Counted from the first letter of the stretch, positions 36,186-64,000 are shown. The stretch: 64,000 nucleotides of DNA from Alphaproteobacteria bacterium (GCA_038131655.1 JAYPPT010000002.1:52517-116516), one strand, 5' to 3'. The notes: generated by a model not told the origin, from the sequence alone. Program-made: numbers and translations.

Positions 36186-36307
36186 GGCCTGAAGTCTGTT
36201 GCACAAGGGTGAATGCTTGGTTGCGGCGTCATGTAGCATGATCGGAGAGGCGGCACAAATTGAACGGTGAAGGGCCCTATAATATTGATCGCGGCCCGGC
36301 GGCTGGC

Positions 36308-42285: not shown

Positions 42286-42361
42286 GGCGGAGTAGCTCAG
42301 CTGGTTAGAGCAGTGGAATCATAATCCATGTGTCGGGGTTCAAATCCCTCCTCCGCTACCA
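42286..42361 (+). tRNA. tRNA-Met (anticodon CAT; elongator type, tRNA-Ile2 not excluded)
   Basis: 76-nt cloverleaf: acceptor GGCGGAG/CTCCGCT, D-arm GCTC..GAGC, anticodon stem GTGGA/TCCAT with loop ATCATAA, T-loop TTCAAAT, encoded CCA. Confidence 0.85.
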
Positions 42362-43010: not shown

Positions 43011-43137
43011 GTCTGTTCCTCCATCGTTGGCGGCCTTTGCGGACTGTTGGTTGGAAGTGTAGCCGAATATACTCCCCTGAAAGGGCAAAAAGAAGGGGAG
43101 GGCTAGGCCCTCCCCATGATTGGTGCCATGGCTTGGG

Positions 43138-44391: not shown

Positions 44392-44588
44392 ACTGATGCC
44401 TCCTTTGACAGATGATTTGGGGATAGCGCCGGACCGGTCTTTGGACCGATTGTGGGCAGCAATTGACAGCCCGCGTCCTACTCGCCAAATTCTTTCGACG
44501 GTAACACGGGAGCAAACGGTGAGGCAAACCGTCCGTATCCCGCGGGAATTCTGTGAACAACCCGGCAAAAATAAAACAGGGGAAAAAA

Positions 44589-46257: not shown

Positions 46258-47496
46258 ATGCACAGCATAAACACCAAGAGAATAGTATTGGGCCTCGCGG
46301 CCGGCATGGCCATGTCGTTGGCGGGGACCGCGGGGGCCACCGACAAAGGCAAGGCCTATTTCAACGGCAAGACGGTGGAATGGATCGTCGCCACGGCGCC
46401 CGGCGGCGGCCACGATTTCTGGGGGCGGCTGGTGGCGGGCTCGATGCAGAAGCATCTTCCCGGCTCGACCTTCGTGGTAAAGAACCGGCCCGGTGCCGGC
46501 CATGTTATCGGCGCCAACCTGATCTACAACGCCAAGCCCAACGGGCTGACCCTGGGCAATTTCACCACGGGATTGCTCTATTCGTCGCTGCTCAAGACCA
46601 AGGGTATCCGCTTCGACTTGGCCAAGATGTCGTGGCTCGGCAAGGTAACGTCCGAACGCCGCGTCCTGTCCGTGGGACAGAAATCCGAATTCAAGTCCTT
46701 TCAGGACATGATCGATTCCAAGCGGATCATTAAGTTCTCGGCCACCGGGGTGGGCTCCAACACCCATACGGAAGCCTTCCTGCTGGGCACGGCCTTCAAG
46801 ATCCCGTTCAGGATCATCACCGGCTACACCAGTTCTTCGGCGGCGCTGGCCATCCTGCGGGGTGAGATAGACGCCATGACCGGGGGCGAGGATTCGGCCG
46901 CGTCCTATGAGAAGGCCGGGCATATCCGCAACGTCATGATGATCGGCGCGGGCAAGCCCGGCGTTGTCGATGCCGCCGATTACGCCAAGACGCCGCTGGC
47001 CAAGTCCGTGGTCAGGCTGATGGGGGCCATGGGCACGTTGTCGCGCATCATGGCCGGCCCCCCGGCCATCCCGGCGGACCGCCTGGCGGCGCTGCGCACG
47101 GCGTTCCGCGAATCGCTCGAAAGCCCGTCGCTGCAGGCGGCGGCAAAAAAGGCGGGCCGCGGGATCGAGCCGGCCTATGGCGATGATGTCGGCCGCCTTG
47201 TCGCGGAACTGATGGACCAGCCGCCGGAGGTGGTGGCGATGCTCAATGAGCTGTCCAAGGTCCGGGTTGCAATGGTCAAGCACGAGGGCAAGGTCACCCA
47301 GACCAAGCGGGGCGGGAGGCAGGTATTCATCAGCCACAAGGGCAAGGAGGTCTGGGCCAAGATCTCCGGTTCGCGCACCAAGGTGACGGTCAATGGCAAG
47401 CCCGCCAAGCGCAAGGCGATCAAGGTGGGCATGACCTGCGCGTTTTCCTACCCGCGCGCCAATGCCGAGGCCAAGAAGGTTGACTGTAGAAAATAA
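46258..47496 (+). CDS. TctC/Bug-family binding protein with Cys-pair C-terminal extension (paralog A2)
   Basis: Signal peptide. Motifs ATAPGGGHDFWGR and FVVKNRPGAGHVIG. C-terminus ...SGSRTKVTVNGKPAKRKAIKVGMTCAFSYPRANAEAKKVDCRK. Confidence 0.75.
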   Translation: MHSINTKRIVLGLAAGMAMSLAGTAGATDKGKAYFNGKTVEWIVATAPGGGHDFWGRLVAGSMQKHLPGSTFVVKNRPGAGHVIGANLIYNAKPNGLTLGNFTTGLLYSSLLKTKGIRFDLAKMSWLGKVTSERRVLSVGQKSEFKSFQDMIDSKRIIKFSATGVGSNTHTEAFLLGTAFKIPFRIITGYTSSSAALAILRGEIDAMTGGEDSAASYEKAGHIRNVMMIGAGKPGVVDAADYAKTPLAKSVVRLMGAMGTLSRIMAGPPAIPADRLAALRTAFRESLESPSLQAAAKKAGRGIEPAYGDDVGRLVAELMDQPPEVVAMLNELSKVRVAMVKHEGKVTQTKRGGRQVFISHKGKEVWAKISGSRTKVTVNGKPAKRKAIKVGMTCAFSYPRANAEAKKVDCRK

Positions 47497-47699
47497 AATA
47501 AAATCATAACAGTTGGTTACATTCAACTTCTAAAGTTAATTCTTTGGATGAGCCGGGCCGGGTTTCCGGGGTTGAACCGACCCGGCCCAGCGGCTAGCCT
47601 TGGGCTCAATACAGGGAAAGACCTCGAATAATATAATATGCAACTGCGGTTTAAACGCATGTGTCAGGGGTCTTTCGGCACAAGAACTGGGAGACGAAA

Positions 47700-48938
47700 A
47701 TGAAACATCCTTCACAGAACTGGGCCGGCTACGCGATCGCGGCGGCGGCAGGACTGGCGCTTGCCGCGCCGGCGGTGGCGGCCGAAAAGGGCGCGGCTTA
47801 TTTCAAGGGCAAGACGGTCGAATGGATCGTTACCACGGCGCCGGGCGGTGGCCACGATTTCTGGGGCCGGTTGCTGTCCAACACCATGGAAAAGAAGCTG
47901 CCGGGCTCGACCTTCGTGGTCAAGAACCGGCCGGGTGCCGGGCATATCATCGGCGTCAACCTGATCTACAGTTCCACCCCCAACGGGCTGACGATGGGTA
48001 ATTTCACCACCGGTCTGGCCTATTCCCAGGTGTTGAAGAAGAAGGGCATCCGCTTCGATCTGGCCAAGATGTCGTGGCTCGGCAAGCTGGCGTCGGAGCC
48101 GCGCACCATGTCGGTGGCGAAGAATTCGCCCTTCAAGAATTTCGAAGACATTCTCAAGTCCAAGCGGGTGCTGAAGTTCTCGGCTTCCGGCGTGGGGTCC
48201 GGCTCCTATACGGACAGTTTCATGGTCGGCCAGGCTTTCGGCCTGCCGTACCGGATCATTACCGGCTATTCCGGCTCCCAGTCGGCGCTGGCGATGCTGC
48301 GCGGCGAAGTGGACATTCTCATGGGTAGCGAGGATTCGGCGCTGGCCTACCAGCGTGCCGGTCAGCTGCGCATCGTCATGCAGGTCGGTGGCGGCGTGAA
48401 AGGCGTGCAGGACGGCCGGGATTACGCCAACAACCCGCAGGCCAAGGCGGTGATGCGGCTGCTGTCGCAGATGGGGGCGCTGTCGCGCATTGCCGCCGGT
48501 CCGCCGAATATCCCCGCTGATCGCCTTGCGGCGCTGCGGGCCGCGTTCAAGGCTTCGACCGAGGATGCGGAATTCCGCGCCGCGGCCAAGCGCGCGGGGC
48601 GTTCGATCGAGCCCGCCTTCGGCGAGGACGTTCAGAAAATGATCGTCGCACTGATGGATCAGCCGCCGGAAATCGTGGACCTGCTCAAGAAGCTGTCCAC
48701 GGTCAAGGTGGACATGATCCAGCACGTCGGTCCGGTGACCCAGATCAAGCGGGGTGGGCGCCAGGTGTACATCTCCAACAAGGGCAAAGAGGTGTTCGCC
48801 AAGATTTCCGGTTCGCGCACCCGAGTGACCGTTGACAACAAGAAGGCCAAGAGAAAGGCCATCAAAAAAGGGATGACCTGCACCTTCACCTATCCTCGGG
48901 CGAATGCCGAGGCGAAGAAGGTGGATTGCAAGAGCTAG
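47700..48938 (+). CDS. TctC/Bug-family binding protein with Cys-pair C-terminal extension (paralog A3)
   Basis: ~75% identical to A2. C-terminus ...SGSRTRVTVDNKKAKRKAIKKGMTCTFTYPRANAEAKKVDCKS. Confidence 0.75.
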   Translation: MKHPSQNWAGYAIAAAAGLALAAPAVAAEKGAAYFKGKTVEWIVTTAPGGGHDFWGRLLSNTMEKKLPGSTFVVKNRPGAGHIIGVNLIYSSTPNGLTMGNFTTGLAYSQVLKKKGIRFDLAKMSWLGKLASEPRTMSVAKNSPFKNFEDILKSKRVLKFSASGVGSGSYTDSFMVGQAFGLPYRIITGYSGSQSALAMLRGEVDILMGSEDSALAYQRAGQLRIVMQVGGGVKGVQDGRDYANNPQAKAVMRLLSQMGALSRIAAGPPNIPADRLAALRAAFKASTEDAEFRAAAKRAGRSIEPAFGEDVQKMIVALMDQPPEIVDLLKKLSTVKVDMIQHVGPVTQIKRGGRQVYISNKGKEVFAKISGSRTRVTVDNKKAKRKAIKKGMTCTFTYPRANAEAKKVDCKS

Positions 48939-48974
48939 GTAGCTTGCGCGCTACCGCTTGGCGGGTTCCGCTTC

Positions 48975-48993
48975 GGCGGGCCCGCCTTTTTCT
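48975..48993 (+). terminator. Rho-independent terminator
   Basis: ggcggg/cccgcc followed by ttttt. Confidence 0.55.
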
Positions 48994-49125
48994 TTGCCAG
49001 GAGCCCGGAATCCGCCGGGCGGCGGGATCGCGGTTGATCGGGCACGGGGGCTCGGCTAGCATCCGGAGGCTAACTCGCGCCCTCGCAACCAAAAAAAACA
49101 AGCGCGGAAACTATGGGGAGATTTC

Positions 49126-49524
49126 ATGGCCAAGATTCGCCATTTTGCTATCGTTTCCACGGACCCGGGCAAGCTCGCGGATTTTTACGAGCGGGTCTTC
49201 GAGATGGAGGTCCTGCACCGCGCCGATAACGGCAGCGTGTTCATGACCGACGGTTATCTCAACCTCGCCATCTTGCTCAACAAGGCCGAGGGCAAGCCCA
49301 GTGGCCTGAATCATTTCGGCTTTCATGTCGAGGATTCGGCGGAAATCGCGCGCCGGCTTGAAAGCGAAGGCCTGCCGGGACCGGCGAAGCGCCCCGCCGA
49401 TCGCCATTACGCGCAGTTCCGGGCCTTTGACCCGGACGGCAACAATTTCGATCTTTCAGAAAACGGGTACGAAACCGTACGGCCCGATCGCATGTCGTCG
49501 GTCAAGGCAAAAACGCCGGCCTGA
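49126..49524 (+). CDS. VOC/glyoxalase-family protein
   Basis: 132 aa: MAKIRHFAIVSTDPGKLADFYERVFEM...LNHFGFHVED. Confidence 0.75.
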   Translation: MAKIRHFAIVSTDPGKLADFYERVFEMEVLHRADNGSVFMTDGYLNLAILLNKAEGKPSGLNHFGFHVEDSAEIARRLESEGLPGPAKRPADRHYAQFRAFDPDGNNFDLSENGYETVRPDRMSSVKAKTPA

Positions 49525-49559
49525 CGCATCCCACTTATTCCACGAACAGGGAGAGAGAT

Positions 49560-50855
49560 ATGAGCATCATTCAAAAACTGGCTTTCGCTGGTGTCGCGGC
49601 AGGAGCGTTCGCTATTGCCGCGCAGGCACCGGTGCAGGCTGCGGATTTTTATAAGGGCAAGACCATCAAGGTTGTCATCGGCTATAGCGCTGGCGGTGGT
49701 TACGATATCTACGCCCGCGCCGTTGCGCGTTATCTCGGTCGCTATGTGCCGGGCAATCCAAACGTCATTTCCCAGAATATGACCGGCGCGGGCAGTGTGC
49801 GCGCCGCCAATTATCTTTACGTTCAGGCGCCGAAGGACGGCACCCAGTTCGGTACGTTCTCTCGCGGGTTGCCCCTCCTGGCACTGACCGGTGCGGACAA
49901 GAACGTGCGTTTCGATCCGACCAAGTTCAAATGGATTGGCAGTACGTCGAGCTATGCCGATGACGCCTATGTGTTTACCGTGCGGCGCGACAAGGGCATC
50001 ACGTCGGTGCGTGAGTTGATGGGCAAGAATGCCAAGCTGGTTACCTTCGGTTCGACCAACTACGGTTCCACCGGGTTCGATGTTCCGCTGGTGCTGAAGG
50101 ATACGTTGGGCCTCAACATCAAGCTGGTTCATGGTTATCCCGGCGGTAGTGCCATCAACCTGGCGATCGAGCGCAAGGAAATGGATGGCCGTACCCAGGG
50201 CCTGTCGTCACTGAGTTCAATGGGCGGCGACTGGAAAAAGGACCGTATTGGGCTGGTGCAGTTCGCCCGCGGAAATGTCCGTCACCCGGACCTGGCTGAC
50301 GTGCCAACGGCGCGTGAACTTGCGACCCGCGAAGACGACCGCAGGCTGATCGACATGCTGGAAACGGCGTTCTTCATGGCGCGTCCGTTTGCCGCCCCTC
50401 CGGGGGTTCCCGTGGACCGCATCAAGGTCCTGCGTACCGCTTTCATGGCGGCCCAGAAAGATCCGAAGTACGTCAAGGACATGGGTAAGCTGGGCATGGA
50501 CATAAGCCCTAAAAGCGGCGAAGAGGTTGAACAGATCGTCGCCCGAATTATGAGCACGCCCAAGCCCTTGCTCGCGCGCTACAAGTCGATCATTGAAAAT
50601 CCTAAGGCGGAGCCACGCAAGGTCAACTGGATCCTGTCCGAAGGCACGATCAGCAAGGTCGGCAAGAAGGGCCGCATCCAGATCAAGGTCGCGGGCAAGT
50701 CCAAGGCCTTCAAGACCCGGATGCGCAAGGGCTATACCAAGATCACGGTCAACGGCAAGAAGGCCAAGATCAAGTCGGTCAAGGAAGGTATGACCTGTAA
50801 GATCTGGCACGAAGGGCCTAAGTCCACTGCCGGCAAGGCTGAATGCACCAAATAG
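49560..50855 (+). CDS. TctC/Bug-family binding protein with Cys-pair C-terminal extension (paralog B1)
   Basis: Signal peptide. Motifs GYSAGGGYDIYAR and NMTGAGSVRAANY. C-terminus ...KITVNGKKAKIKSVKEGMTCKIWHEGPKSTAGKAECTK. Confidence 0.75.
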   Translation: MSIIQKLAFAGVAAGAFAIAAQAPVQAADFYKGKTIKVVIGYSAGGGYDIYARAVARYLGRYVPGNPNVISQNMTGAGSVRAANYLYVQAPKDGTQFGTFSRGLPLLALTGADKNVRFDPTKFKWIGSTSSYADDAYVFTVRRDKGITSVRELMGKNAKLVTFGSTNYGSTGFDVPLVLKDTLGLNIKLVHGYPGGSAINLAIERKEMDGRTQGLSSLSSMGGDWKKDRIGLVQFARGNVRHPDLADVPTARELATREDDRRLIDMLETAFFMARPFAAPPGVPVDRIKVLRTAFMAAQKDPKYVKDMGKLGMDISPKSGEEVEQIVARIMSTPKPLLARYKSIIENPKAEPRKVNWILSEGTISKVGKKGRIQIKVAGKSKAFKTRMRKGYTKITVNGKKAKIKSVKEGMTCKIWHEGPKSTAGKAECTK

Positions 50856-50874
50856 ATTCGGTTCAGGGGCGAAG

Positions 50875-50899
50875 AGGCGGGACCGTGTTCCCGCCTTTT
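50875..50899 (+). terminator. Rho-independent terminator
   Basis: ggcggg-N8-cccgcc followed by ttttt. Confidence 0.55.
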
Positions 50900-51041
50900 T
50901 GTGCCCAAGGTGCGGTAAATATGCAACATTTTGTTGTATTGATCCCACATCCACAAGTCGTTAGCATCCGCCCAAGAAATCAAGAAAGGCCGCTGAACCT
51001 CACCCAAGAGGGCGGCGTTGATATTTGAAAGGCAGGGAAAT

Positions 51042-52340
51042 ATGTCAACCCATCTCCATTTGGGGCGAGTTTCGCTCGCCCTCGTGTTCGGGCTCGGGGT
51101 TGCCGCTCATGGCGCGGCGCAGGTCGGGGCCGCTGAATTGTACGAAGGCAAGACCGTCAAGGTGATGATCGGTTACGGGGCCGGCGGCGGCTACGATACT
51201 TATGGTCGCTTCGTCGCACGCAATATCGGCAGGCATTTGCCGGGCAAGCCCAGCACCATCACCCAGAACATGCCCGGCGCCGGTTCGATCGCCGTGGTCA
51301 ACTATATCTACAAGCAGGGTGCCAAGAATGGCACCGAGTTCGCCATTTTCGCCCGCTCCGCGCCGATTCTCGCGCTGGCCGGAAAAAGCAAGCAGGCCCG
51401 GTTCGATCCGCTGAAGCTCACCTGGGTCGGCAGCTCGTCGAGCTACAAGGGCGAGGCCTACATGATGATGGTGCGCAAGGACACGGGCATCACTTCCATC
51501 AACGACTTGCGCAAGGCCAAGAAGGAGCTTCGTTTCGCCGCAACCTCGTTTGGCTCCGACGGCACCGACGTGCCGATCGTGCTGCGCGAAGTCCTTGGCC
51601 TCAACATCGTGCCGCTGCGCGGTTATCCGGGCGGCAATTCGCTTTATCTCGCGGTCGAGCGCGGTGAAGCGCAGGGCCGCATGACGGGCTTTGCCTCAAT
51701 GAAGACGGCGCAGCCGGGATGGCTCAAGCCGGACGCCCCGGTGCGGCCGATCCTTCAGTTCGCCACCCAGACCCGCCTGCCGGAATTTCCCGACGTGCCG
51801 ACCGCACGCGAGATTGCGACCAAGGCGGATGACCTGGCCCTGATCGAGATGCTGGAAGCGCCGTTCTACATGGCCCGGCCTTTTGCCGCGCCGCCGGACC
51901 TGCCCGCGGAGATCACCAAGGCCCTGCGTACGGGCTTCATGAAGGCGCACCAGGATCCGGTCGCATTGAAGGAAGCGAAGAAGCTGCGTCTCGACCTGTC
52001 CCCCGCTGACGGTGCCGAAGTGCATAAGGTCATCGAGCGCCTGGCGGCGATGCCGAAGTCGCTTTACGACCGCTATAACGACATCCTGAAGGACCCGAAG
52101 TCGCCGATCCGCCAGGTCAAGTGGCAGATCGTGGAGGGTGAGCTTTCCAAGATTGCGAAGAAGGGCCGGGTCGAACTGGTCTCCGGCGGCAAGACCCACA
52201 AGGTCCGGGTCACCGGCGGCTACACCGAGCTTACGATCAAGGGCAAGGCCGCGAAGGACAAGGCCCTGAAGACCGGCATGACCTGCAAGGTCTGGTACGA
52301 AGGCAACGGCTCCGCCGCCGGCAAGATGGAATGCAAATAA
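51042..52340 (+). CDS. TctC/Bug-family binding protein with Cys-pair C-terminal extension (paralog B2)
   Basis: MSTHLHLGRVSLALVFG... Motifs GYGAGGGYDTYGR and NMPGAGSIAVVNY. C-terminus ...LTIKGKAAKDKALKTGMTCKVWYEGNGSAAGKMECK. Confidence 0.75.
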   Translation: MSTHLHLGRVSLALVFGLGVAAHGAAQVGAAELYEGKTVKVMIGYGAGGGYDTYGRFVARNIGRHLPGKPSTITQNMPGAGSIAVVNYIYKQGAKNGTEFAIFARSAPILALAGKSKQARFDPLKLTWVGSSSSYKGEAYMMMVRKDTGITSINDLRKAKKELRFAATSFGSDGTDVPIVLREVLGLNIVPLRGYPGGNSLYLAVERGEAQGRMTGFASMKTAQPGWLKPDAPVRPILQFATQTRLPEFPDVPTAREIATKADDLALIEMLEAPFYMARPFAAPPDLPAEITKALRTGFMKAHQDPVALKEAKKLRLDLSPADGAEVHKVIERLAAMPKSLYDRYNDILKDPKSPIRQVKWQIVEGELSKIAKKGRVELVSGGKTHKVRVTGGYTELTIKGKAAKDKALKTGMTCKVWYEGNGSAAGKMECK

Positions 52341-52373
52341 CCTTCTGATCGGCGATCGCCGAAACGACTGCTG

Positions 52374-52405
52374 GGGCGCGAATCTTCGGATTCGCGCTCT
52401 TTTTT
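52374..52405 (+). terminator. Rho-independent terminator
   Basis: gcgcgaatc-ttcg-gattcgcgc followed by tctttttt. Confidence 0.6.
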
Positions 52406-52594
52406 GGCCGAAAAGCCACTTTATAAAATATATGTTTTTGATAACCCATTGAAATTAAATAATCTTAAGTTCTTAAGACGCTCCATGCGTTGCCCCGGCC
52501 CAAGAAAGCTTGTTAGCATCTTCTTATTCATGGCGGAGGCGACAAGGCGCTGAAGAAACCCGGCCCCGCCGCACAGAAGAACTGGGAGACTGAA

Positions 52595-53908
52595 ATGAGT
52601 AAATTCCATCATCTGGCCCGCATTCCTGCCTTTGCGGGTGTCGCGGCCCTTGTCGGGGCTGCTGCCCTGGCGCTTCCCTCAAATCCGGCATCGGCGGAAA
52701 TGTTTTCCGGCAAGACCGTTCGCGTGCTTATCGGCTACGCCGCCGGTGGCGGCTACGACCGTTACGGTCGCCAGGTCGCGCGCCATATCGGCAAGTACCT
52801 GCCGGGCAAGCCCAATGTCGTCGCCGTGAATATGCCGGGCGCGGGCAGTTACAAGGTGGTCAACTACATCTACAACACTGCGCCGAAGGACGGCACGGAG
52901 TTCGCGATTTTTGCCCGCTCCGTGCCCATTCTTGCGTTTTCGGGCAAGTTCGACAAAACCCGCTTTGATCCGCTGAAGCTGACCTGGATCGGCACGTCGT
53001 CCAGCTACAAGGGCGAAGCCTATCTTGTGGTGGTGCGCAAGGACACCGGCGTGAAAAATATCGAGGATCTTCGCAAGATCAAGAAGACGGTAATGTTCTC
53101 GGCCACGGCTTTCGGTTCCGACGGTACCGACGTGCCGATCGTGCTGCGTGAAGTGCTTGGCCTCAATGTTCAGGCGTTGCGCGGTTACCCTGGCGGCAAC
53201 TCGCTTTACCTTGCGGTGGACCGTGGCGAGACCCAGGGACGCATGGTCGGCTACGCCTCGGTCAAGACGGCGCATCCCGAATGGCTGAAGCCGGACAGCC
53301 CGATCAATGTCGTGCTGCAATTCGCCACGCGCGAGCGTCTGCCCGCCTTCCCCAATGCGCCGACGGCTTACGAGCTTGCCCGCAACGACGCGGACCGTGC
53401 GTTGATCGACATGCTGGAAGCGCCGTTCTACATGGCGCGCCCGTTCGCGGGCCCGCCTGGCATGCCGGCGGCGAATACCTCGGCGGTGCGCGCGGCCTTC
53501 ATGGCGGCGCATGAGGACCCGGTGTACAAGAAGGAAGCGAAGAAGTTGCGCTTGCTCACCAGTCCCCAGGACGGTGCCACCGTGCAGAACCTGGTGGCCA
53601 AGCTCGGCAAGATGTCGCCGGACCTTTATGCGCGTTACACGCGAATCCTGAAGAACCCGGATTCCCCGGTCCGCGTCATCAAGTGGGTCAAGTTTTCCGG
53701 CAAGATCTCGAAAACCGGCAAGAAGGGCCGCTTCGTGGTCAAGACCGCCGAGGGCAAGAGCCACAAGCTGCGTGCCCGCGGCAGCTACACCAAGATCAAG
53801 ATCAACGGCAAGAAAGCCAAGTCAAAGGCGCTCAAGAAGGGCATGGAGTGCAATGTCTGGTGGGAAGGTCCGAAGACCACGCCCGGCCGGGTAGAGTGCA
53901 CGAAGTAA
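52595..53908 (+). CDS. TctC/Bug-family binding protein with Cys-pair C-terminal extension (paralog B3)
   Basis: Motifs GYAAGGGYDRYGR and NMPGAGSYKVVNY. C-terminus ...KIKINGKKAKSKALKKGMECNVWWEGPKTTPGRVECTK. Confidence 0.75.
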   Translation: MSKFHHLARIPAFAGVAALVGAAALALPSNPASAEMFSGKTVRVLIGYAAGGGYDRYGRQVARHIGKYLPGKPNVVAVNMPGAGSYKVVNYIYNTAPKDGTEFAIFARSVPILAFSGKFDKTRFDPLKLTWIGTSSSYKGEAYLVVVRKDTGVKNIEDLRKIKKTVMFSATAFGSDGTDVPIVLREVLGLNVQALRGYPGGNSLYLAVDRGETQGRMVGYASVKTAHPEWLKPDSPINVVLQFATRERLPAFPNAPTAYELARNDADRALIDMLEAPFYMARPFAGPPGMPAANTSAVRAAFMAAHEDPVYKKEAKKLRLLTSPQDGATVQNLVAKLGKMSPDLYARYTRILKNPDSPVRVIKWVKFSGKISKTGKKGRFVVKTAEGKSHKLRARGSYTKIKINGKKAKSKALKKGMECNVWWEGPKTTPGRVECTK

Positions 53909-53931
53909 CGTTCTGCGCTTGAAGTCATTGA

Positions 53932-53962
53932 GGGCGCGGGTTTTGGCCCGCGCCCTTTTTTT
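53932..53962. terminator. Bidirectional Rho-independent terminator between paralog B3 and the convergent UbiD-family gene
   Basis: gggcgcggg-ttttgg-cccgcgccc followed by ttttttt. Confidence 0.6.
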
Positions 53963-53964
53963 GC

Positions 53965-55416
53965 CTAGAGCCCGAACTTGTCGCGCACCTTGGCGCGCAT
54001 GTCGTCGGAGAACACGTTGACGGCCGGGAATTCGTCGCGCCAGCGGTAGGGGCGGCAGGCATCGATCAGGACCCGGTCCATGGTGTAGCCGTGGGGCGAG
54101 CGGTCATCGGGGGCGATGGCCGGATCGGCGGGCGATGTCCAGACGCTCTTGACGATATCCACGCCTTCACGCGGATTGCAGCGGGTGGCGACGGCCCAGA
54201 TGACATCGTTGATGTTCGACGCCTCGACATCGTCGTCGACGACGATGACGAACTTGCCGCCGTAGGCCCCGGCGCGGGCCGAAGTCGCGGCCAGCGCGGT
54301 CTGCTTGGCGTGCCCGGCATAGGACTGGCGGATGGAGACCACGGTGAAGGGACCGGATTGCCCGCCGTAGATATGACCCCAGACGCCGGTGATGCCGGGA
54401 ATGCCGGCGGCCTCAAGCTGGTCCCACAGTTGCGCCGCGCCCAGCGGCACGGAAATGTAATTGTTGGGCGGCTTCAGCGGCGGCACGCCGAGGATGATCG
54501 GCTCATCCCGCCAATAGGCCGCCTTGACGTGCATCAGCGGCACTTCGCCGGTGGTGGTGTCGGCGAAATAGCCGGGCCATTCGCCGAAGGGGCCTTCCTT
54601 GGGCAGCACCTCGTCGCTCGGCGGCGGCACCTCGCCCTCGATCACGATCTCGGCGCTGGCGGGAATAGGCAGGCCATAAAGCGGGCTGGCGACGGTTTCC
54701 ACCGGCGCGCCCTGCAGCCAGCCGGCGATTTCATATTCCTTCTCGCCGGGCGCGACGGGCAGTTGCGCGGCCAGGAAGATCGAGGTCGCGTGGCCGAAGC
54801 TGATGGCCACGGGGCAGGCTTCGCCCCGCGCGTGGTAGGCGTCCATCGCCAGGCGCCCGTGCTTGCCCTTGTTCATCTTGACGCTGATGCGGTCCTTGCC
54901 CTGCACCATGCAGCGGTAGGTGCCGATATTGACCTGGCCGCTGTCGGGGTCGCGGGTGATGACCGCCGATCCGGTGCCGAGATAGCGTCCGCCGTCGTGT
55001 TCGTGCCAGATGGGGGCGGGAAAGATGCCGAGATCAAGCGCCGCACCCTCGGCGCGGTTCTCGAACACCGGGCCGTCCTTGACCATCACCGGGGCGATGG
55101 GTTTCTTCTCGCGGATACGCTGGCGCCAGGCGTTGAGCAGGCCAACCCCGGAAAGCGTGTCCGGCAGTCCCAGGCTGGCGGCGGCGCGGGCGTGGGTGCG
55201 AAAGACGTTGGAAAAGACCCGGAAGCCCTTGGGGTAATCCTTGATCTCGTCGAACAGGAGGGCAGGGCCTTCTTCCTCGCCCAGGATTTCGGTCACGGCG
55301 CCGATTTCAAGTTTCCAGTCGGCGCCCTTGATTTCCCGCAGGTCGCCGCTCTCGCGCAGTTCCGCGATAAAGGCGCGCAGGTCGCTTTGCCGGTTGCTTC
55401 GGTTGTTCGCGCTCAT
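53965..55416 (-). CDS. UbiD-family (prFMN-dependent) decarboxylase
   Basis: Start at MSANNRS. ~483 aa. UbiD-type body (…PGYFADTTTGEVPLMHV…, …FVIVVDDDVE…). Confidence 0.8.
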   Translation of the reverse strand: MSANNRSNRQSDLRAFIAELRESGDLREIKGADWKLEIGAVTEILGEEEGPALLFDEIKDYPKGFRVFSNVFRTHARAAASLGLPDTLSGVGLLNAWRQRIREKKPIAPVMVKDGPVFENRAEGAALDLGIFPAPIWHEHDGGRYLGTGSAVITRDPDSGQVNIGTYRCMVQGKDRISVKMNKGKHGRLAMDAYHARGEACPVAISFGHATSIFLAAQLPVAPGEKEYEIAGWLQGAPVETVASPLYGLPIPASAEIVIEGEVPPPSDEVLPKEGPFGEWPGYFADTTTGEVPLMHVKAAYWRDEPIILGVPPLKPPNNYISVPLGAAQLWDQLEAAGIPGITGVWGHIYGGQSGPFTVVSIRQSYAGHAKQTALAATSARAGAYGGKFVIVVDDDVEASNINDVIWAVATRCNPREGVDIVKSVWTSPADPAIAPDDRSPHGYTMDRVLIDACRPYRWRDEFPAVNVFSDDMRAKVRDKFGL

Positions 55417-55447
55417 TGCATCCCCCCTGCACCGGCGCGTTCCCGCC

Positions 55448-56929
55448 TCAGCTCGAGGCGGGAAACACCAGCGATTTGATGACCACGGGTACCGCACCGG
55501 ACGAAGGAATAAGTTCGCCGATGTCGATGTAGTCGAATTCCTTGAGCTCGATCCCATCAATGGACACGACAGCATCGTCGAGCTGAATTTCCTCGGTCAT
55601 GTGCAGCCCGAGAAGGCCGCCGATATCGCTGTCGTTGACCATGATCAACGGATGGCCCTTTTCGCAATGCTTCTTCAGTCCGGCGACGACGCCGGTGCAG
55701 AAATCGTGCAGCCGCTTGAAGGTTGCCGAGCCGCCCCACTTGAACGAAACCGCCACCGGCTGCTCCGCGTCCGTCAGGTCTAGGCGTGTCAGCGATGCCT
55801 CGATTTCCTGGGCGACCTTGGCCGGGTCGATTTCCTCGGCCGTGAGGTCGATATCGGGCGCGATCACCGGCACGTTGCGAATAGGCACGGCGCTGGTCGG
55901 GTTGATGAAGATCGTGTTGCCCGACACCTGCACGGTGTATTGCGATGCGCCGATGACGGTCGCGCGAATGGTGGCCTTGGGTTCGTGAATCTTGATGCCG
56001 AGCGCATCCACCGCCTTGCGGATGGCCTTGGCTACGAAGGGGCCGAGGTCGCCAAAAGCTGTCGTCGCCTTGTCGTAGATGAATTCCGAAACCCCGCCGG
56101 AAAACGTGATCGCATCCACCTTGCCACGGTAGGTAAGCGGCGGCAGGCGCAGAAGCTTGATGGCTTCGGGCGTCATGTCTTTCAGGGTCACGACCTCCAT
56201 CAGACGCGCGATCATGCGATCGACAAATGCCTGAAGTTGGGTGTCCGTCGGCTTGACGCCGAATCCGATTTCAATGCCCGCTTCCTTGGCATAGGTATGG
56301 GCGGCGTCTTCGATGCGGTTGATCTTGCCGTCGTCGTCCATGGCCAGAAGCCGGGCGCCGACGTCAATGGCGGTGACTTCGTGAACCTTGCCGCCTTCAC
56401 AGATAGCGACCTTGGAGGTGCCGCCGCCGATATCGATGTTCATCACCACGCCATCGAGCGACGCAGACAACGCCACCGCGCCGGAACCATGGGCCGCCAT
56501 GGTGGTTTCCAGCCCGTCACCGGCCGAAACCGCGACGAACTTTCCGGCATCGGCCGCGAACAGGTCGGCAATGGCGCGGGCATTGCTGCGGCGCACGGCA
56601 ACGCCGGTGAGGATCAGGGCGCCGGTGTCGATATCCGACCGCTTGAGGCCGCTTTTCGTATAGCAGCCGTCAATGAATGATCCCAGCGCGTCCGAATCGA
56701 TCACCTCGCCGTCCACATAGGGGGTGAGCAGGATGTCGGATTCGGCCAGAATTTCGCGCTCTACGATCTTGTAGCGCGAGCCGATGCATTCCATGTGCAG
56801 GCGCGAGAAAACCAGGTGCGACGTGGACGAACCGATGTCCACGCCGACGCTGGTCAGGTCGAATTCACCTTCGTCAACGATGTGCCGCTCGGCGCTGGTG
56901 AACGCCGCGCGAATCTCTCTCTGTGCCAT
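55448..56929 (-). CDS. EutA-family ASKHA ATPase (ethanolamine ammonia-lyase reactivase-like)
   Basis: 493 aa. SVGVDIGSSTSHLVFSRL and NIDIGGGTSKVAI are collinear with EutA phosphate-binding motifs. Confidence 0.7.
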   Translation of the reverse strand: MAQREIRAAFTSAERHIVDEGEFDLTSVGVDIGSSTSHLVFSRLHMECIGSRYKIVEREILAESDILLTPYVDGEVIDSDALGSFIDGCYTKSGLKRSDIDTGALILTGVAVRRSNARAIADLFAADAGKFVAVSAGDGLETTMAAHGSGAVALSASLDGVVMNIDIGGGTSKVAICEGGKVHEVTAIDVGARLLAMDDDGKINRIEDAAHTYAKEAGIEIGFGVKPTDTQLQAFVDRMIARLMEVVTLKDMTPEAIKLLRLPPLTYRGKVDAITFSGGVSEFIYDKATTAFGDLGPFVAKAIRKAVDALGIKIHEPKATIRATVIGASQYTVQVSGNTIFINPTSAVPIRNVPVIAPDIDLTAEEIDPAKVAQEIEASLTRLDLTDAEQPVAVSFKWGGSATFKRLHDFCTGVVAGLKKHCEKGHPLIMVNDSDIGGLLGLHMTEEIQLDDAVVSIDGIELKEFDYIDIGELIPSSGAVPVVIKSLVFPASS

Positions 56930-56932
56930 ACG

Positions 56933-58162
56933 CTACTCGGCGGCTTTGTTCGGCGCGACGTAGAGCTCCGGCTCCATGCGGGACTTGCCGCCGTCTTCCG
57001 CGAGGGTCGATTCGAATTCCTTGCGGAGATACGGGTCTTCCATGTCGTAGGGAATGGCCGTGCCGCCGTCGCGGATATCGATGGCGCCGTAGTCGTTCAT
57101 CTGGCTGCCGGGCGCACCGGAGCGGGAGTTCTTGCCCGGATGGACGGGGCCGAACCACGCGGTCAGGCGCAGCGGGCCGGACGACACGCCGAAGTGCTGG
57201 TGATACCACTCGCCGCCCATGGGCGCGGCGGTGACCATGCCCACCGGCTCGTAATCCTGGCGCATAACCTCGGCGGCCTTGCCGTCCTTCCATGGCGTCG
57301 GGCCAAGGCGGTCGGGCCAAGTGTAAGTGTAGCCCTTGCCCTTGAGGCAGATCAGCACCGCCGCCGAACCGTGGGCGTGGGCCTTCGAATAGCGGCCGGT
57401 TTCATGCTGGGCGATCCACAGGTAGAAATTCTGGCGCGCCATGTGCGGCTCGATCCGGCGATAGCCCGGCGAGCGACGGTTATCCAGCGGCAGTTCGCAG
57501 TTGATGACATCGGGCAGGATGTTGGTCTGCTTCATCGCCAGGCCGCGAATGGGATCGGCGAAGATGTCGTCGTTGGGCTTGTAGTAGTCCTCGGCGTTCG
57601 GATCGAAGCGGTCGCGGAAGGCGTAGGGGCAGTTGAAGATGAAATCCGCGTTGCGGTAGGTGTTGAACGCTTCCGGCGCGAGCGAGCCGCCGAGCAGCTT
57701 TGCCGGCTGCGACGACGCGTTGATCAGGCGGTACTTGGCGTTCAGCGGAATGGCGAACATCGAACCGGCCTGCCATTCGAACACGTGCTTTTTCGTTTCG
57801 TCGCCGTCTTCCCAGACCTCGGTGGTGCCGCGGCCTTCGATCACCAGGAACTGCTGTTCGTAGATGTGCTTGACCGCGTTGGTCGCCCCGGCACCGGGAA
57901 CTTCCAGCACGAACGATCCCCACAGGCCTTCGGTGCCCCAAAGCTGGATGAAAGTGCCGCGCCCGCCGTAGAACTTCCAGTCGCCGAGCGGCAGATCCTG
58001 GCAGCGCTGCACGCCGAGGCCGCGGAAGCACGGGATGCACTGGGCTTCCATCCAGTCGTCATAAGGCAGATTGGGCCGTTCGAAGGTGCCGAAGCCGGAC
58101 TTCTTCTTGTTGTCCGTCGGTTCGGTCCAGTGGATGTGTTCATCGGGCATGTCGTGCGGCAT
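56933..58162 (-). CDS. Bicupin protein (gentisate/ring-cleaving dioxygenase-like)
   Basis: 409 aa with two cupin modules (…HAHGSAAVLICLKGKGYT… and …EWYHQHFG…). It lies 3 nt upstream of the EutA-like gene, suggesting an operon. Confidence 0.55.
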   Translation of the reverse strand: MPHDMPDEHIHWTEPTDNKKKSGFGTFERPNLPYDDWMEAQCIPCFRGLGVQRCQDLPLGDWKFYGGRGTFIQLWGTEGLWGSFVLEVPGAGATNAVKHIYEQQFLVIEGRGTTEVWEDGDETKKHVFEWQAGSMFAIPLNAKYRLINASSQPAKLLGGSLAPEAFNTYRNADFIFNCPYAFRDRFDPNAEDYYKPNDDIFADPIRGLAMKQTNILPDVINCELPLDNRRSPGYRRIEPHMARQNFYLWIAQHETGRYSKAHAHGSAAVLICLKGKGYTYTWPDRLGPTPWKDGKAAEVMRQDYEPVGMVTAAPMGGEWYHQHFGVSSGPLRLTAWFGPVHPGKNSRSGAPGSQMNDYGAIDIRDGGTAIPYDMEDPYLRKEFESTLAEDGGKSRMEPELYVAPNKAAE

Positions 58163-58356
58163 TGCAATCTCCTAGGGAGCCCCGTTTCGGGGTGGATGGA
58201 CTGAGTCGTGAAAAGGCGGGGCGGCGCCGCATTGGGGCGCCGCCGGTGGCGCGATTTTAGCCCCCGGATGGCCCGCCCGCAACCGCGCCCCTGCGGGTGC
58301 GGTTTGCGTTGCCGCCGCCATGGGCCATAATCGGCCAAAATCGGCAGGGGGCACCG

Positions 58357-59511
58357 GTGAGCTTCGAATTACCCGAGGAATTGCGCATTCTCAAAGCCAG
58401 TGTCCGGCGTTTCGTGGACGAGGAAATGATTCCCCTCGAAGGCAAGACGCTGGAGGCGGGCCGTCTGCGTCCCGGTTACCTGGAACATTTCTGCGACAAG
58501 GCCAAGGCGCTGGGCCTGTGGCTGATCGACGTGCCGGAGGAATTCGGCGGTCAGGGCCTCGGCCTTCTTGCCCGCGCGGTGGTATGGGAAGAACTGGGCC
58601 GCACGGTGGCCCTGCCGACGCGGGGCGTCAGCATCCTTGGCCCTGATGTGCGCCCGATCCTCTATGCCCTTGATGCGGAAATGCGTGAACGCTATCTGTT
58701 TCCCGTCATTCGCGGCGAAAAAACCTGCTGCTTTGTCCAGACGGAGCCCGATTCCGGCTCCGACCCCGGTTCGATGCGGACCACCGCGGTGCGCGATGGC
58801 GACGATTACGTCATCAACGGCGTCAAGCGATTCATCACCGGCGCCGATCACGCCGATTTCGCCCAGGTCATGGCGGCAACGGAGCGGGAGAAGGGGTCGC
58901 GCGGCGGGATTTCGTGTTTCCTGGTGGACATGGATACGCCCGGCATCCGGCTTTCGGCCCAGTACCACACCATGACCGAGGAAGGCCCGTGGGAAATCGT
59001 TTTCGACGACGTGCGCGTGCCCGCGCGCAATCTCGTCGGCGAGGAGGGCAAGGGCTTTGCCTTGGGACAGAAGTGGCTCAGCGTCGGACGCATCAAGCAG
59101 GGCGCGCGGGCGCTCGGCGTCACGGAACGCTGTCTTGAACTCGGCACGGCTTACGCCAAGCAGCGCGTGACCTTTGGCCGGCCCCTGGCGGATCGCCAGG
59201 GCATCCAGTGGATGCTGGCGGAAACGGCGGTCAAGCTGACGGCGGCGCGGCTGATGATTTACCGCGCGGCGGCGCGCGCGGACGCCGGGGTCGAGGACCG
59301 GGTTGAGCCCTATATGGCCAAGCTGTTCGGGACCGAAATGGCTTACCGCGCGGCGGACGAATGCCTGCAAATCCACGGCGGCATCGGCCTGACCAAGGAT
59401 CTGCCGGTGGAACGCCTGTTCCGCGACCAGCGCAGCCACCTCATTACCGAAGGCACCCCGGAAATGATGCGGATGGTGATCGCCCGTCAGGTCCTGCGGG
59501 CTTCGTCCTAG
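58357..59511 (+). CDS. Acyl-CoA dehydrogenase family protein
   Basis: GTG start after AGGGGG. ACAD motifs including a C-terminal catalytic-Glu region (…QIHGGIGLTKDLPVERLFRD…). Confidence 0.85.
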   Translation: MSFELPEELRILKASVRRFVDEEMIPLEGKTLEAGRLRPGYLEHFCDKAKALGLWLIDVPEEFGGQGLGLLARAVVWEELGRTVALPTRGVSILGPDVRPILYALDAEMRERYLFPVIRGEKTCCFVQTEPDSGSDPGSMRTTAVRDGDDYVINGVKRFITGADHADFAQVMAATEREKGSRGGISCFLVDMDTPGIRLSAQYHTMTEEGPWEIVFDDVRVPARNLVGEEGKGFALGQKWLSVGRIKQGARALGVTERCLELGTAYAKQRVTFGRPLADRQGIQWMLAETAVKLTAARLMIYRAAARADAGVEDRVEPYMAKLFGTEMAYRAADECLQIHGGIGLTKDLPVERLFRDQRSHLITEGTPEMMRMVIARQVLRASS

Positions 59512-60895: not shown

Positions 60896-63070
60896 TCAGG
60901 ATCCGGTGCCGGACAGAACCACCAGCGCATCCAGCGCCAGCGCGCCCCGGCCTTCGGGCAGGGCGACCAGGGGATTGATATCCACCGCCTCGATAATGTC
61001 GCCGGAATGGGCGGCCAGCGCGCCGAGCGCGACGATGGCGTCGATCACGGCTTCGCGGTCGAGCGCAGGTGCCCCGCGCCAGCCCGCCAGCAATTTTCCG
61101 GCGCGGGTGGCGTCGATCATCGCGGCGGCTTCCGCCCGGTTCAGCCCGGCGCGGCCGAAGGCCACGTCCTTGTATAGCTCCAGCATGACGCCACCCATGC
61201 CGAACATGACCACCGGGCCCATTTCCGCATCGCGGGAAATGCCGAGCGCCAGTTCCGCCCCGCCGGTCACCTGCTCGGCGACCAGGAATCCTTCCAGCTT
61301 TGTGCCCGGCGCGTAGGCTTCGACATTACCGGCAATGGTCGCGCAGGCGGCTTTTACAGCTGCCGCGTCGGCGAGGTTCAGCATCACCGCGCCCGCTTCG
61401 GTCTTGTGGGCCAGCGTCGGGGCCACGCCCTTGATGACGACGGGATAGCCCATCGCGTCCGCGGCCCCGGCGGCGGACTGCGGATCGTTGGCGAGGGTTT
61501 CGCGTGCCGCCCGGAGACCCCAGGGCGGCAGCAGCGCCTTGGATTGCGCTTCGCTCAGGGTGCGCGGGCCATCGCCGCGGGCCTCGGCCAGTTCGCGCAA
61601 GCGCGCCAGTGCCTCGGCACCGGCCTTGGGACCGGGGCCTGCTTCGGCGCGGGTGCGCCGGGCGATCTGGTCGTTGAACCGCTGGACGACGCGAAAGGCG
61701 CGGTCGGGCTCACTGAGGTAGGGCAGATGCGCGAGGCCGGCCCGCAGGCTTTTCGCGTGGGCGCTGGGGCTGACATTGACCGGCGTGAACAGCGCGAGCG
61801 GCGGGCGGTTCTCGCGCTCCTTGGTCCATTTCGCGACCCCGCGCAGGTTGGATTCTTTTCGTTCAATACCGGGGACTTGCGGGATTTCCTCGCCAAGAAG
61901 AATCAACCCGACTTCCGGGTCATCGGCGAGCGCGTCGAGACAGGCGAGATAGTTTTCGGTACGGATCGTCTGCTTGGTATCCACCGGGTTTCCGCGCGGC
62001 GCATCGGCGGCAAGCTGTTCGGAAATGCGGGCCTGGGTGGTTTCGGAAAACCGGGCCAGCGGCACACCGGCGCGGGCCGCGGATTCGGAAACCAGGCTTT
62101 TCAGCGCGCCGGAATTGCTGACCACCGCGACGGCGGGGCCGCGTGGTGGCGCGGCGCGCACTGCGTATTCCAGCGCCTCGACCGCGTCTTCCAGGCAATC
62201 GAACCGGGTCACCCCGGCGGCGCCGGCAACCGCATCGAAAGCTTCGACCGCACCCGCCAGCGATCCCGTATGGGCGAGCGCTGCCGCCCGGCCCGCGTCC
62301 GAACCGCCGATCTTGACCGCGAGCACGGCCTTGCCCGCGGCCTGCGCCGTGCGGCAGGCGTCGAGGAAGTCGTCCACCCGCGCCACCTGTTCGAGGTAGA
62401 GCAGGATGGCGCGAACCTGGGGTTCACCGGCCATGAAGCGAATGTAGTCGCCGGCGGCGAGACCCACCTGGTTACCGCAGGAAATCAGGTAGGAGGGCAT
62501 CATAGCGCGTTCGGCGAGAATGCGGTTCAGCGCCACGCAAAGACCGCCCGACTGGGCGATGACGGCGACGGGGCCGGGTTCGATCCCGCCCAACCCGTCG
62601 TCGGGCAGGGTGACGGCGCGCGACGGCGCCGCGACGTTGCCGAGGCAATTGGGGCCGCACAGCGCGATCCCGGTTTCCTCGACAACCTTGGCCAGTTCGC
62701 GGGCGCGTTCGCGCCCCTTGGGATCATTGCCTTCGCCGAAGCCGCCGGCGAAAACAAGCGCCGAGCGCGCACCCGCCGCCGCCGCTTTGCGCAACAGGCC
62801 GGGGACAAGATCCGCGGGCAGGAACGACAGAATGTGATCGGGTGCTTCGGGCAGGGCGGCGACATTGGGGAAGCAGGGCACGTCCCAGATCGTCTCGCGC
62901 TTGGGATTGACGGGATAGACCCCACCGGGGAAACCGAAACGGCGAAGGTTCTCGTAAACGCGTCCGGACCAGTGGCGGGGGCGGTCGGAAGCGCCGACCA
63001 GGACGATATTGCGGGGGCGTAGAAGCGCGCCGGCGTCGTGATGCACGACAGGCGGGGTACGGGTAGTCAC
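60896..63070 (-). CDS. Acyl-CoA synthetase (NDP-forming): CoA-binding plus ATP-grasp fused subunits
   Basis: GTG start after GAGGAT. N-terminal CoA-binding / succinyl-CoA-synthetase-like alpha domains (NIVLVGASDRP..., GPNCLG). C-terminal ATP-grasp (GYPVVIKGVAPTLAHKTEAGAV). Confidence 0.75.
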   Translation of the reverse strand: MTTRTPPVVHHDAGALLRPRNIVLVGASDRPRHWSGRVYENLRRFGFPGGVYPVNPKRETIWDVPCFPNVAALPEAPDHILSFLPADLVPGLLRKAAAAGARSALVFAGGFGEGNDPKGRERARELAKVVEETGIALCGPNCLGNVAAPSRAVTLPDDGLGGIEPGPVAVIAQSGGLCVALNRILAERAMMPSYLISCGNQVGLAAGDYIRFMAGEPQVRAILLYLEQVARVDDFLDACRTAQAAGKAVLAVKIGGSDAGRAAALAHTGSLAGAVEAFDAVAGAAGVTRFDCLEDAVEALEYAVRAAPPRGPAVAVVSNSGALKSLVSESAARAGVPLARFSETTQARISEQLAADAPRGNPVDTKQTIRTENYLACLDALADDPEVGLILLGEEIPQVPGIERKESNLRGVAKWTKERENRPPLALFTPVNVSPSAHAKSLRAGLAHLPYLSEPDRAFRVVQRFNDQIARRTRAEAGPGPKAGAEALARLRELAEARGDGPRTLSEAQSKALLPPWGLRAARETLANDPQSAAGAADAMGYPVVIKGVAPTLAHKTEAGAVMLNLADAAAVKAACATIAGNVEAYAPGTKLEGFLVAEQVTGGAELALGISRDAEMGPVVMFGMGGVMLELYKDVAFGRAGLNRAEAAAMIDATRAGKLLAGWRGAPALDREAVIDAIVALGALAAHSGDIIEAVDINPLVALPEGRGALALDALVVLSGTGS

Positions 63071-63083
63071 GGTAATCCTCGGG

Positions 63084-64000
63084 TCAGGGCTGCATGAACA
63101 GGCAGCTCGCGTTGCCGCCGCTGGTGCGGGCGATGTGGGGTCGGTCCTCGAACAGGCCGGGCAGAACCTTGCGGATGCGCCGGGAATTGGCGTGGTCGGG
63201 GAAACGGGCGAGGTAGGCTTCGGTCCAGGCCATGTGATGCCAGCGTCCACGCGGCTCGGTAAAGCGCAGGTCCTGTTCGCGCCAGTCGAGTCCGGGACCC
63301 GGTGCGCGGTTCACCTTGGCATAAGGGTGAACGATGACCGGCCGCTCAATGCCGTCGAGCAGGAAACGGATGGCGCGGTGCAACGACCGTCCCTCGATTT
63401 CCATGCCGTAGAGGTCGTGCCCCTGGCGTGCCGCGGTTTCGGCGATGGTGGTCAGCATGCCGACGGCATAATTCTGATACCAAAGCGCCCGCGAACCGCG
63501 CTGGGTTTCGAGCGGCAGGGAGCCATCGGCGCGCATCTGGCGCAGGGCCACGCGGAAACGCTGGATCCCCTTGCGGTAGCGCGTGTCATCACCGCTGGCC
63601 GTGCCCCACATGATGTTCACGGCATCGCGCAAGTAGCGATGATTGTTGCAATTGCTGGTGTCCTGGTTGGCGGGGCAGTTGAGGATGCGCTTCGCGCGAT
63701 TGCGCCCGCCGGTGTTGGTGTCGGCCAGGTTCACCATTTTTTCGACCCAGCCATTCACCTTGGCGCGCTGGTCGGGGGGCACGCGGGCATCGTCGCGAAT
63801 CGCCACCCAGTTGGGGATCAGGGCGGCAAGCGAACGCTTGAGGCCGAAGGTCACGGATGTGTTGGAGCCGGCGACATCATCGATCAATTGTGTCATCGCC
63901 CCGGCATCGGCCCAACGCGTAAGCAGGCTCATGAAGGTATCGAGCGCGGGGCGGGAGTTGGTGCCGAAGGCATTTGCACTGTGGACGACCACGGCCCAGT
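63084..64000 (-). CDS. Alginate-lyase-like (PL5-type) polysaccharide lyase, 5' end beyond the window
   Basis: Motifs NNHRY and WYQNYA match the PL5 NNHSYW / WLEPYCALY signatures loosely. The ORF runs to the window edge. Confidence 0.5.
   Translation of the reverse strand, partial: WAVVVHSANAFGTNSRPALDTFMSLLTRWADAGAMTQLIDDVAGSNTSVTFGLKRSLAALIPNWVAIRDDARVPPDQRAKVNGWVEKMVNLADTNTGGRNRAKRILNCPANQDTSNCNNHRYLRDAVNIMWGTASGDDTRYRKGIQRFRVALRQMRADGSLPLETQRGSRALWYQNYAVGMLTTIAETAARQGHDLYGMEIEGRSLHRAIRFLLDGIERPVIVHPYAKVNRAPGPGLDWREQDLRFTEPRGRWHHMAWTEAYLARFPDHANSRRIRKVLPGLFEDRPHIARTSGGNASCLFMQP

Follow-up and report, generated by a model that had tools for sequence, protein, structure and literature searches.

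Here we describe a three-gene operon in a 64,000-nucleotide stretch of DNA from an Alphaproteobacteria bacterium (GCA_038131655.1 JAYPPT010000002.1:52517-116516; the whole stretch is called the window hereafter), in which the gene for a EutA-like ATPase of the acetate and sugar kinase/Hsc70/actin (ASKHA) fold lies between the genes for a bicupin and for a UbiD-family decarboxylase. Our results indicate that the conserved partner of the ATPase is very probably the bicupin and not UbiD. An earlier note on this DNA had treated the bicupin as a bystander and had proposed the ATPase as the partner of UbiD in its maturation, its reactivation or a carboxylation. To our knowledge, EutA is known solely as the reactivase of the vitamin B12-dependent ethanolamine ammonia-lyase. 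The genes of the operon are:

56933-58162, minus strand: bicupin of 409 amino acids (aa) that opens the operon, with an AGGAG placed 8 nucleotides (nt) before its ATG and a match to Cupin_2
55448-56929, minus strand: EutA-family ASKHA ATPase of 493 aa, from a non-eut subfamily (PF06277, E=1e-122)
53965-55416, minus strand: UbiD-family decarboxylase of the prenylated flavin mononucleotide (prFMN) type, 483 aa, a lineage-specific third gene with the domains UbiD_N, UbiD and UbiD_C

The open reading frames (ORFs) of the first two genes sit at exactly the coordinates given in the earlier note, and that of the third spans 53965-55575. Within it, the ATG at 55416 fits the homologues and has GGGGGA ahead of it, and the alignment with the decarboxylase PhdA (see below) starts at residue 12 of the protein. 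With the UbiD start set at this ATG, the bicupin and EutA-like genes are separated by 3 nt and the EutA-like and UbiD genes by 31 nt, the spacing reported earlier. The order bicupin-EutA-UbiD is repeated on at least 13 independent contigs, so the arrangement is more than chance.

We surveyed the loci of the EutA-like gene with tblastn and an ORF clustering that was aware of the GC content at third codon positions, keeping one genome per species. The survey yielded 80 loci, all of them from metagenome-assembled genomes. A bicupin gene was located immediately upstream of the EutA-like gene and on the same strand in 53 of the 78 assessable loci, with gaps mostly of 11-177 nt, while a UbiD gene was immediately downstream in 3 of 76. 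The bicupin-EutA pairing was found in Alphaproteobacteria, Binatia, Deltaproteobacteria, Chloroflexota and Verrucomicrobia, a Zixibacteria contig (L003) shows the same order, and each of the two proteins is 60-70% identical across phyla. The nearest syntenic relatives of the window (L001, L006 and L008) have EutA-like proteins 75-81% identical to its own, and share with it the acyl-CoA synthetase, the alginate-lyase-like gene and the TctC array. These loci are cleanly devoid of UbiD, the EutA stop codon being followed within 73-150 nt by the stop of a convergent TctC gene. Wherever the contig extended far enough, we found no locus with the EutA-like and UbiD genes but without the bicupin.

The strongest comparative argument that the bicupin and the EutA-like protein work together comes from paralogous pairs that have diversified jointly. 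The locus L169 carries such a pair in the order bicupin (26% identity)-EutA (40% identity to that of the window)-bicupin, and in L066 a second EutA (PF06277, E=1.5e-117) lies near a 30%-identical bicupin. The pairing is frequent, but not obligate.

The 493-aa protein belongs to the EutA family, as the earlier note had proposed: it matched PF06277 with 410.9 bits (cut-off 27) over profile positions 3-474 of 475, and it is 32% identical to E. coli EutA and colinear with it over the full length, including the C-terminal domain. Its scores against the NCBIfam EutA equivalogs (NF007991-NF007994) were all below the cut-offs, with 350.4 against 598 as the best and 249 against 769, 221 against 952 and 196 against 799 for the rest. 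In a neighbour-joining tree the subfamily forms a tight clade, distant from E. coli EutA. The phosphate-1 (D31-I-G-S-S-T), phosphate-2 (D166-I-G-G-G-T) and adenosine (G278-G279) motifs of the ASKHA fold are intact, and D31/G33/S34/S35/T36, D166/G168/G169/G170/T171 and G278/G279 are invariant in 20 members of the subfamily. Relatives are abundant, with at least 8000 candidates; the best 120, all with identities of 60% or more, carry the labels Alphaproteobacteria, Deltaproteobacteria, Binatia, Zixibacteria and Terriglobales. We also considered a [4Fe-4S] 'archerase' (BcrAD/HgdC-like) identity and ruled it out, given that only one Cys (C177) is invariant. A literature search for links between EutA-family proteins and cupins or UbiD found none, and the matches to 'eutA' referred to an unrelated ectoine gene.

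In Pfam the bicupin matched Cupin_2 alone, and weakly (31.5 bits), and no NCBIfam model matched it. It consists of two double-stranded beta-helix barrels in one chain. An AlphaFold2 model built from 22 close homologues alone had a predicted local distance difference test (pLDDT) score of 51, and we used the model obtained after enlarging the alignment with paralogues, with a pLDDT of 89.9 and a predicted template modelling score of 0.88. A Foldseek search with it returned generic bicupins at a template modelling score of ~0.43. Sequence and profile searches of the PDB gave no useful solved structure for either the bicupin or the EutA-like protein. The residues H262, H264, H321 and H323 of the C-terminal cupin are invariant in a set of 53 sequences that includes paralogues, and so are Y258, K260, R230, E375 and R380. 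The position of the canonical cupin Glu in this barrel is occupied by Ala (A268), so there is no carboxylate at that place, and we found no conserved metal ligands in the N-terminal barrel. A carboxylate-free, His-only site is typical of cupin dioxygenases. One case is the 3-His iron site of 2,4'-dihydroxyacetophenone dioxygenase (PMC4219425). The bicupin superfamily comprises 225 clusters (50% clustering, E<=1e-30), with paralogous families at 25-33% identity.

The genes around the pair were also informative. The pair occurs on megaplasmids of the cultured rhizobia Phyllobacterium zundukense A18/3m (L170, NZ_CP104971.1, 7723-12105) and Sinorhizobium mexicanum ITTG R7 (L171, NZ_CP041241.1), whose bicupins are 95% and EutA-like proteins 77% identical to each other; each of these replicons carries a second EutA-like copy. 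The accessions of the pair in Phyllobacterium are WP_262291220.1 and WP_262291219.1. In the rhizobia the pair has as neighbours a Rieske ring-hydroxylating oxygenase with its ferredoxin, a class II aldolase and regulators of the LysR/IclR type. The position downstream of the EutA-like gene is taken by a flavin adenine dinucleotide (FAD)-dependent aromatic-ring hydroxylase in Sinorhizobium and by the Ni/Co transporter HoxN with NikR in Phyllobacterium; this Ni/Co link, seen at no other locus, is a hint at metal handling. Loci from Deltaproteobacteria, Zixibacteria and Verrucomicrobia have molybdenum hydroxylases (of the CoxSML type in Deltaproteobacteria and Zixibacteria), Amidohydro_2 proteins, vicinal oxygen chelate (VOC) proteins and Rieske oxygenases nearby. 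Amidohydro_2 is a family of non-oxidative aromatic-acid decarboxylases, and it recurs near loci with the complete bicupin-EutA-UbiD triple as well. Since two unrelated decarboxylase families, UbiD and Amidohydro_2, recur beside the module, a decarboxylation step next to a ring-cleavage or oxygenation step fits these data. On balance, we favour a role of the bicupin-EutA module in aromatic catabolism, aerobic to judge from its neighbourhoods, in line with the aromatic-acid (de)carboxylation setting suggested earlier. A threonine-synthase-like (PALP) neighbour in Binatia and AddAB in Deltaproteobacteria look like housekeeping genes and were not used for inference.

Some loci depart from this arrangement. 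In L175 (3650-8505) and L176 a 67%-identical bicupin from this subfamily stands without EutA, convergent with the gene for a CobW/COG0523 GTPase metallochaperone and near a second bicupin and a TctC gene; here the GTPase is a possible alternative helper nucleoside triphosphatase. In Dehalococcoidia (L011-L083) an OsmC or major facilitator superfamily gene, not a bicupin, precedes the EutA-like gene, and in L011, L014 and L015 a 27%-identical bicupin paralogue lies ~8 kb from it.

To these observations, which cover gene families and their spacing, conservation statistics, the co-pairing of paralogues, similarity of fold and the content of neighbourhoods, we add a model whose physical interaction, dioxygenase chemistry, role of ATP and substrate we infer. 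Its core is a two-gene unit that is conserved across phyla, with the gene for a bicupin metalloenzyme of ~400 aa ahead of that for a EutA-family ASKHA ATPase. The bicupin would be a non-heme-metal oxygenase of aromatic catabolism with a His-only metal site in its C-terminal barrel, and its predicted structure appears closest to the gentisate/salicylate-type ring-cleaving dioxygenases. The most likely target of the ATPase is the bicupin, not UbiD, and ATP could be spent to load, exchange or restore a labile, oxidation-prone metal centre, or to free a dead-end complex, by analogy with EutA on ethanolamine ammonia-lyase; we offer this activase/reactivase mechanism tentatively, as one that may well prove wrong. 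The PhdA-like UbiD, added as the third gene of the transcript in two lineages of Alphaproteobacteria, that of the window among them, would probably turn an aromatic or heteroaromatic carboxylic acid into the bicupin substrate or do the reverse, using prFMN supplied by a ubiX elsewhere in the genome. Taken as a whole, with the bicupin as a ring-cleaving enzyme, the EutA-like protein as its ATP-dependent activase/reactivase and UbiD as an addition in this lineage, the model is plausible and, in our estimate, falls a little short of an even chance.

Several points weigh against it. Roughly a third of the EutA-like loci (25 of 78), mainly from Dehalococcoidia and one alphaproteobacterial clade, have no adjoining bicupin and carry a downstream aldo-keto reductase, His-phosphatase and amidase instead, and some bicupins of the same subfamily have no adjoining EutA. 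Known gentisate dioxygenases hold their catalytic iron in the N-terminal cupin, while the His cluster of our bicupin is in the C-terminal one, and its identity to those enzymes is only 12-14%. The hints at metal handling, from Ni and from CobW, are single cases, and we know of no ATP-dependent helper of a cupin dioxygenase.

Databases have propagated the EutA name to thousands of environmental proteins, and the large, highly conserved subfamily described here has no ethanolamine ammonia-lyase nearby and is tied instead to an uncharacterised bicupin, which points to an undescribed, B12-independent role for the EutA-like ATPase family. More speculatively, EutA-family ATPases may have a second, B12-independent class of clients, the environmental subfamily being the dedicated activase/reactivase of unrecognised His-only bicupin oxygenases in an aromatic-catabolism module that is portable from Alphaproteobacteria to Binatia and Chloroflexota; we regard this generalization as possible but rather doubtful. 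If true, it would be the first ATP-driven helper for a cupin enzyme. An ATPase servicing the bicupin would represent a new enzyme-helper system for non-heme metal enzymes and would correct a widespread mis-annotation. It would also offer a way to approach abundant genes, implicated in the degradation of aromatic organic matter, from uncultured Binatia, SAR202-type Chloroflexota and the Alphaproteobacteria of soils and the sea. The hypothesis is directly testable, because the pair is present in cultured rhizobia.

Among the competing explanations, the one that survives best takes the EutA-like protein as a small-molecule kinase and the bicupin as an isomerase or lyase on a phosphorylated or neighbouring intermediate, forming a unit of the kinase-isomerase-aldolase type whose substrate would be sugar-like or enolic. 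Kinase activity is typical of ASKHA proteins, and the protein has weak matches to BcrAD_BadFG, Ppx-GppA and acetate kinase; however, its colinearity over the full length, C-terminal domain included, is with EutA, a reactivase directed at a protein. In Phyllobacterium and Sinorhizobium the gene directly upstream of the pair encodes a class II aldolase/adducin, and in Dehalococcoidia the EutA-like gene has those for a His-phosphatase and an aldo-keto reductase directly downstream, but the aldolase and the phosphatase are lineage-specific neighbours. Finally, the Joint Genome Institute label for the bicupin is 'mannose-6-phosphate isomerase-like', yet cupin sugar isomerases normally have a His/His/Glu/His site and that of the bicupin is without a carboxylate. 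We consider this explanation unlikely.

We then turn to UbiD, whose assignment as a UbiD-type decarboxylase stands: all three domains were matched in Pfam, the EGPFGE motif is present and TIGR00148 scored 245.7 against a cut-off of 244.85. Its closest solved relative, aligned in full length (residues 12-481, E=3e-125), is PDB 7PDA, the phenazine-1-carboxylate decarboxylase PhdA of Mycobacterium fortuitum (PMC10850782). We gathered orthologues through a metagenome scan with the UbiD protein. All ten of those with at least 75% identity and upstream DNA lay directly downstream of a EutA-like gene, with the bicupin present where the contig reached it, while no EutA-like neighbour was found for homologues at 56-67% identity (0/19 loci) or at 41-45% (0/50). 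The neighbour-joining tree of EutA-like proteins places the loci with UbiD in two clades of Alphaproteobacteria: clade A, which includes the window and within which UbiD is patchy, and clade B, in which the operon continues past UbiD with a VOC/glyoxalase protein and a UbiE-like methyltransferase. Given that 10/10 close orthologues follow the pair and the ~69 distant homologues never do, UbiD is an add-on gene in these two clades; it is faithful to the module as a lineage-specific accessory, and the module is independent of UbiD. That one PhdA-like UbiD clade was always recruited to the bicupin-EutA module hints at the class of its physiological substrate. The PhdA-like clade at 41-45% identity (L116-L165) often adjoins a CoxSML-type molybdenum hydroxylase trio (FAD, 2Fe-2S and molybdenum cofactor subunits), which suggests a route by which N-heteroaromatic or aromatic acids are hydroxylated and decarboxylated.

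These results bear on the earlier idea that the EutA-like protein serves UbiD, either as a chaperone for maturation or reactivation (prFMN loading or repair) or as an ATP-dependent partner in carboxylation. The co-occurrence of EutA and UbiD that it relied on is real from the UbiD side, in the ten orthologues above, and the tight 31-nt spacing in the window, with 33-44 nt in L007, L033, L063 and L090, agrees with it. From the EutA side it does not hold: UbiD is present in 3 of 76 loci against the bicupin in 53 of 78 and is cleanly absent from the closest relatives, which makes an ATPase dedicated to UbiD unlikely. Moreover, the EutA-UbiD pair never occurs without the bicupin, and UbiD homologues at 41-67% identity never occur with a EutA-like gene. 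As the earlier note had it, no UbiX is adjacent, which could speak for a helper: a tblastn search with the authentic E. coli UbiX found no match in the window or in any fetched locus. The top NCBIfam match of UbiD is the phenylphosphate carboxylase beta model TIGR02724, but its score of 301.7 is far under the cut-off of 468.95 and the plain decarboxylase PhdA is a much better match. Altogether, we hold a UbiD-directed role of the ATPase to be quite improbable.

The least probable explanation, to which we give very little credence, is an ordinary EutA acting in trans on ethanolamine ammonia-lyase or another adenosylcobalamin enzyme elsewhere, with an incidental bicupin neighbour: it would agree with the full-length PF06277 membership, with the EutA annotation of the family in the sources and with a B12-dependent class II ribonucleotide reductase inside the window (2273-6019), but this reductase, at a distance of 50 kb, shows no synteny with the module, tblastn with the E. 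coli EutB and EutC found no match in the window (as the earlier note had claimed) or in ~165 fetched loci, every EutA equivalog cut-off is missed, and the bicupin adjoins in five or six phyla, an arrangement that paralogous pairs repeat.

Returning to the bicupin-EutA module as it stands in the window, the operon is flanked by the following features:

53930-53957: GC-rich hairpin of 12 bp with a T-run, in the gap between the convergent stop codons at 53908 (a TctC-like gene) and 53965 (UbiD); likely terminator
58163-58296: divergent intergenic region of 134 nt between the bicupin and acyl-CoA dehydrogenase genes; presumed promoter/regulatory region
58297-59511, plus strand: acyl-CoA dehydrogenase, divergent from the operon
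60896-63250, minus strand: ADP-forming acyl-CoA synthetase (CoA_binding_2 / Succ_CoA_lig / ATP-grasp_5)
46258-53908, plus strand: five genes for TctC-like solute-binding proteins, in an array that converges on the operon

The hairpin is strong and likely ends the operon as a terminator. The region 58163-58296 presumably holds the promoter and regulatory elements; neither a sigma-70 consensus nor a riboswitch was found in it, and a search for Rfam riboswitches (B12 or other) found none across the whole window. The divergent acyl-CoA dehydrogenase and the adjoining TctC array are where the earlier note had placed them. The dehydrogenase is also kept, in its divergent orientation, in clade B (78% identity; L063, L090 and L103), and in the relatives L001, L006, L007, L008 and L063 the bicupin has the acyl-CoA synthetase directly upstream and on its own strand. 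The TctC-like array is syntenic in the relatives whether UbiD is present or not, and its three genes nearest to UbiD group together as paralogues.

The first 42 kb of the window consist of alphaproteobacterial housekeeping genes. A tRNA-Met (CAT) at 42286-42361 (plus strand) sits exactly where the GC content drops from ~0.65 to 0.57-0.61 (42-54 kb), and the block past it, with a small cupin, TctC genes, an esterase and the TctC array, may be a flexible or island-like region. The small cupin is a monocupin (Cupin_2, E=6e-10; 42588-43187, minus strand) that lies just downstream of the tRNA and adjoins another TctC-family receptor gene (43138-44754, minus strand). The class II ribonucleotide reductase, on the minus strand and with a TSCPD domain, is the only B12-linked enzyme that we saw in the window. 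The RNase E/G gene (18858-21376, minus strand) is split into two ORFs in different frames (19994-21376 and 18858-19991) whose junction lacks Pfam profile positions ~190-222, an apparent frameshift due to an assembly error or a pseudogene. Tyrosyl-tRNA synthetase (34952-36377, minus strand) is likewise broken by an apparent frameshift into the overlapping ORFs 35697-36377 and 34952-35947, and the splitting of both genes suggests some indel errors in the assembly. The ORF of release factor 2 (25997-26857, plus strand) begins at position 116 of the Pfam PCRF profile, consistent with the well-known programmed +1 frameshift in prfB.

Finally, we compared the operon with known systems. The phenylphosphate carboxylase PpcABCD of Thauera, an ATP-linked UbiD-type carboxylation, resembles it in the TIGR02724 top match and in the concept of an ATP-activated phenol carboxylation, but the window has no genes for a second UbiD-like subunit, a haloacid dehalogenase-type phosphatase or a phenylphosphate synthase. 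PhdA (7PDA) has the same three-domain architecture as the UbiD of the window, which differs in its operon context and in having no adjoining UbiX/PhdB-type prenyltransferase. The 1,2-dioxygenases of gentisate and of salicylate (PDB 3BU7, 2PHD and 2D40) are bicupins that cleave rings with a 3-His Fe(II) site, and at only 10-14% identity their likeness to our bicupin is not detectable by sequence; the latter is ~50 residues longer, has one more invariant His and carries the His cluster in the C-terminal instead of the N-terminal barrel, and no known member of the group has an ATPase partner. E. coli EutA (b2451) has in common with the EutA-like protein the phosphate and adenosine motifs of the ASKHA fold and the motifs DYIDIG...KSL.FP at the C-terminal end, while the window protein has no eutBC or other eut genes nearby and its conserved neighbour is a bicupin rather than a B12 enzyme. 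The reactivases DdrAB/GdrAB of diol and glycerol dehydratase and the XylT-type ferredoxins of catechol 2,3-dioxygenase are functional analogues only. The clients of DdrAB are B12 enzymes, XylT is no ATPase but a [2Fe-2S] reductant, and neither is paired with a cupin, but in both cases a dedicated helper, co-transcribed with a self-inactivating enzyme, restores its cofactor or metal.

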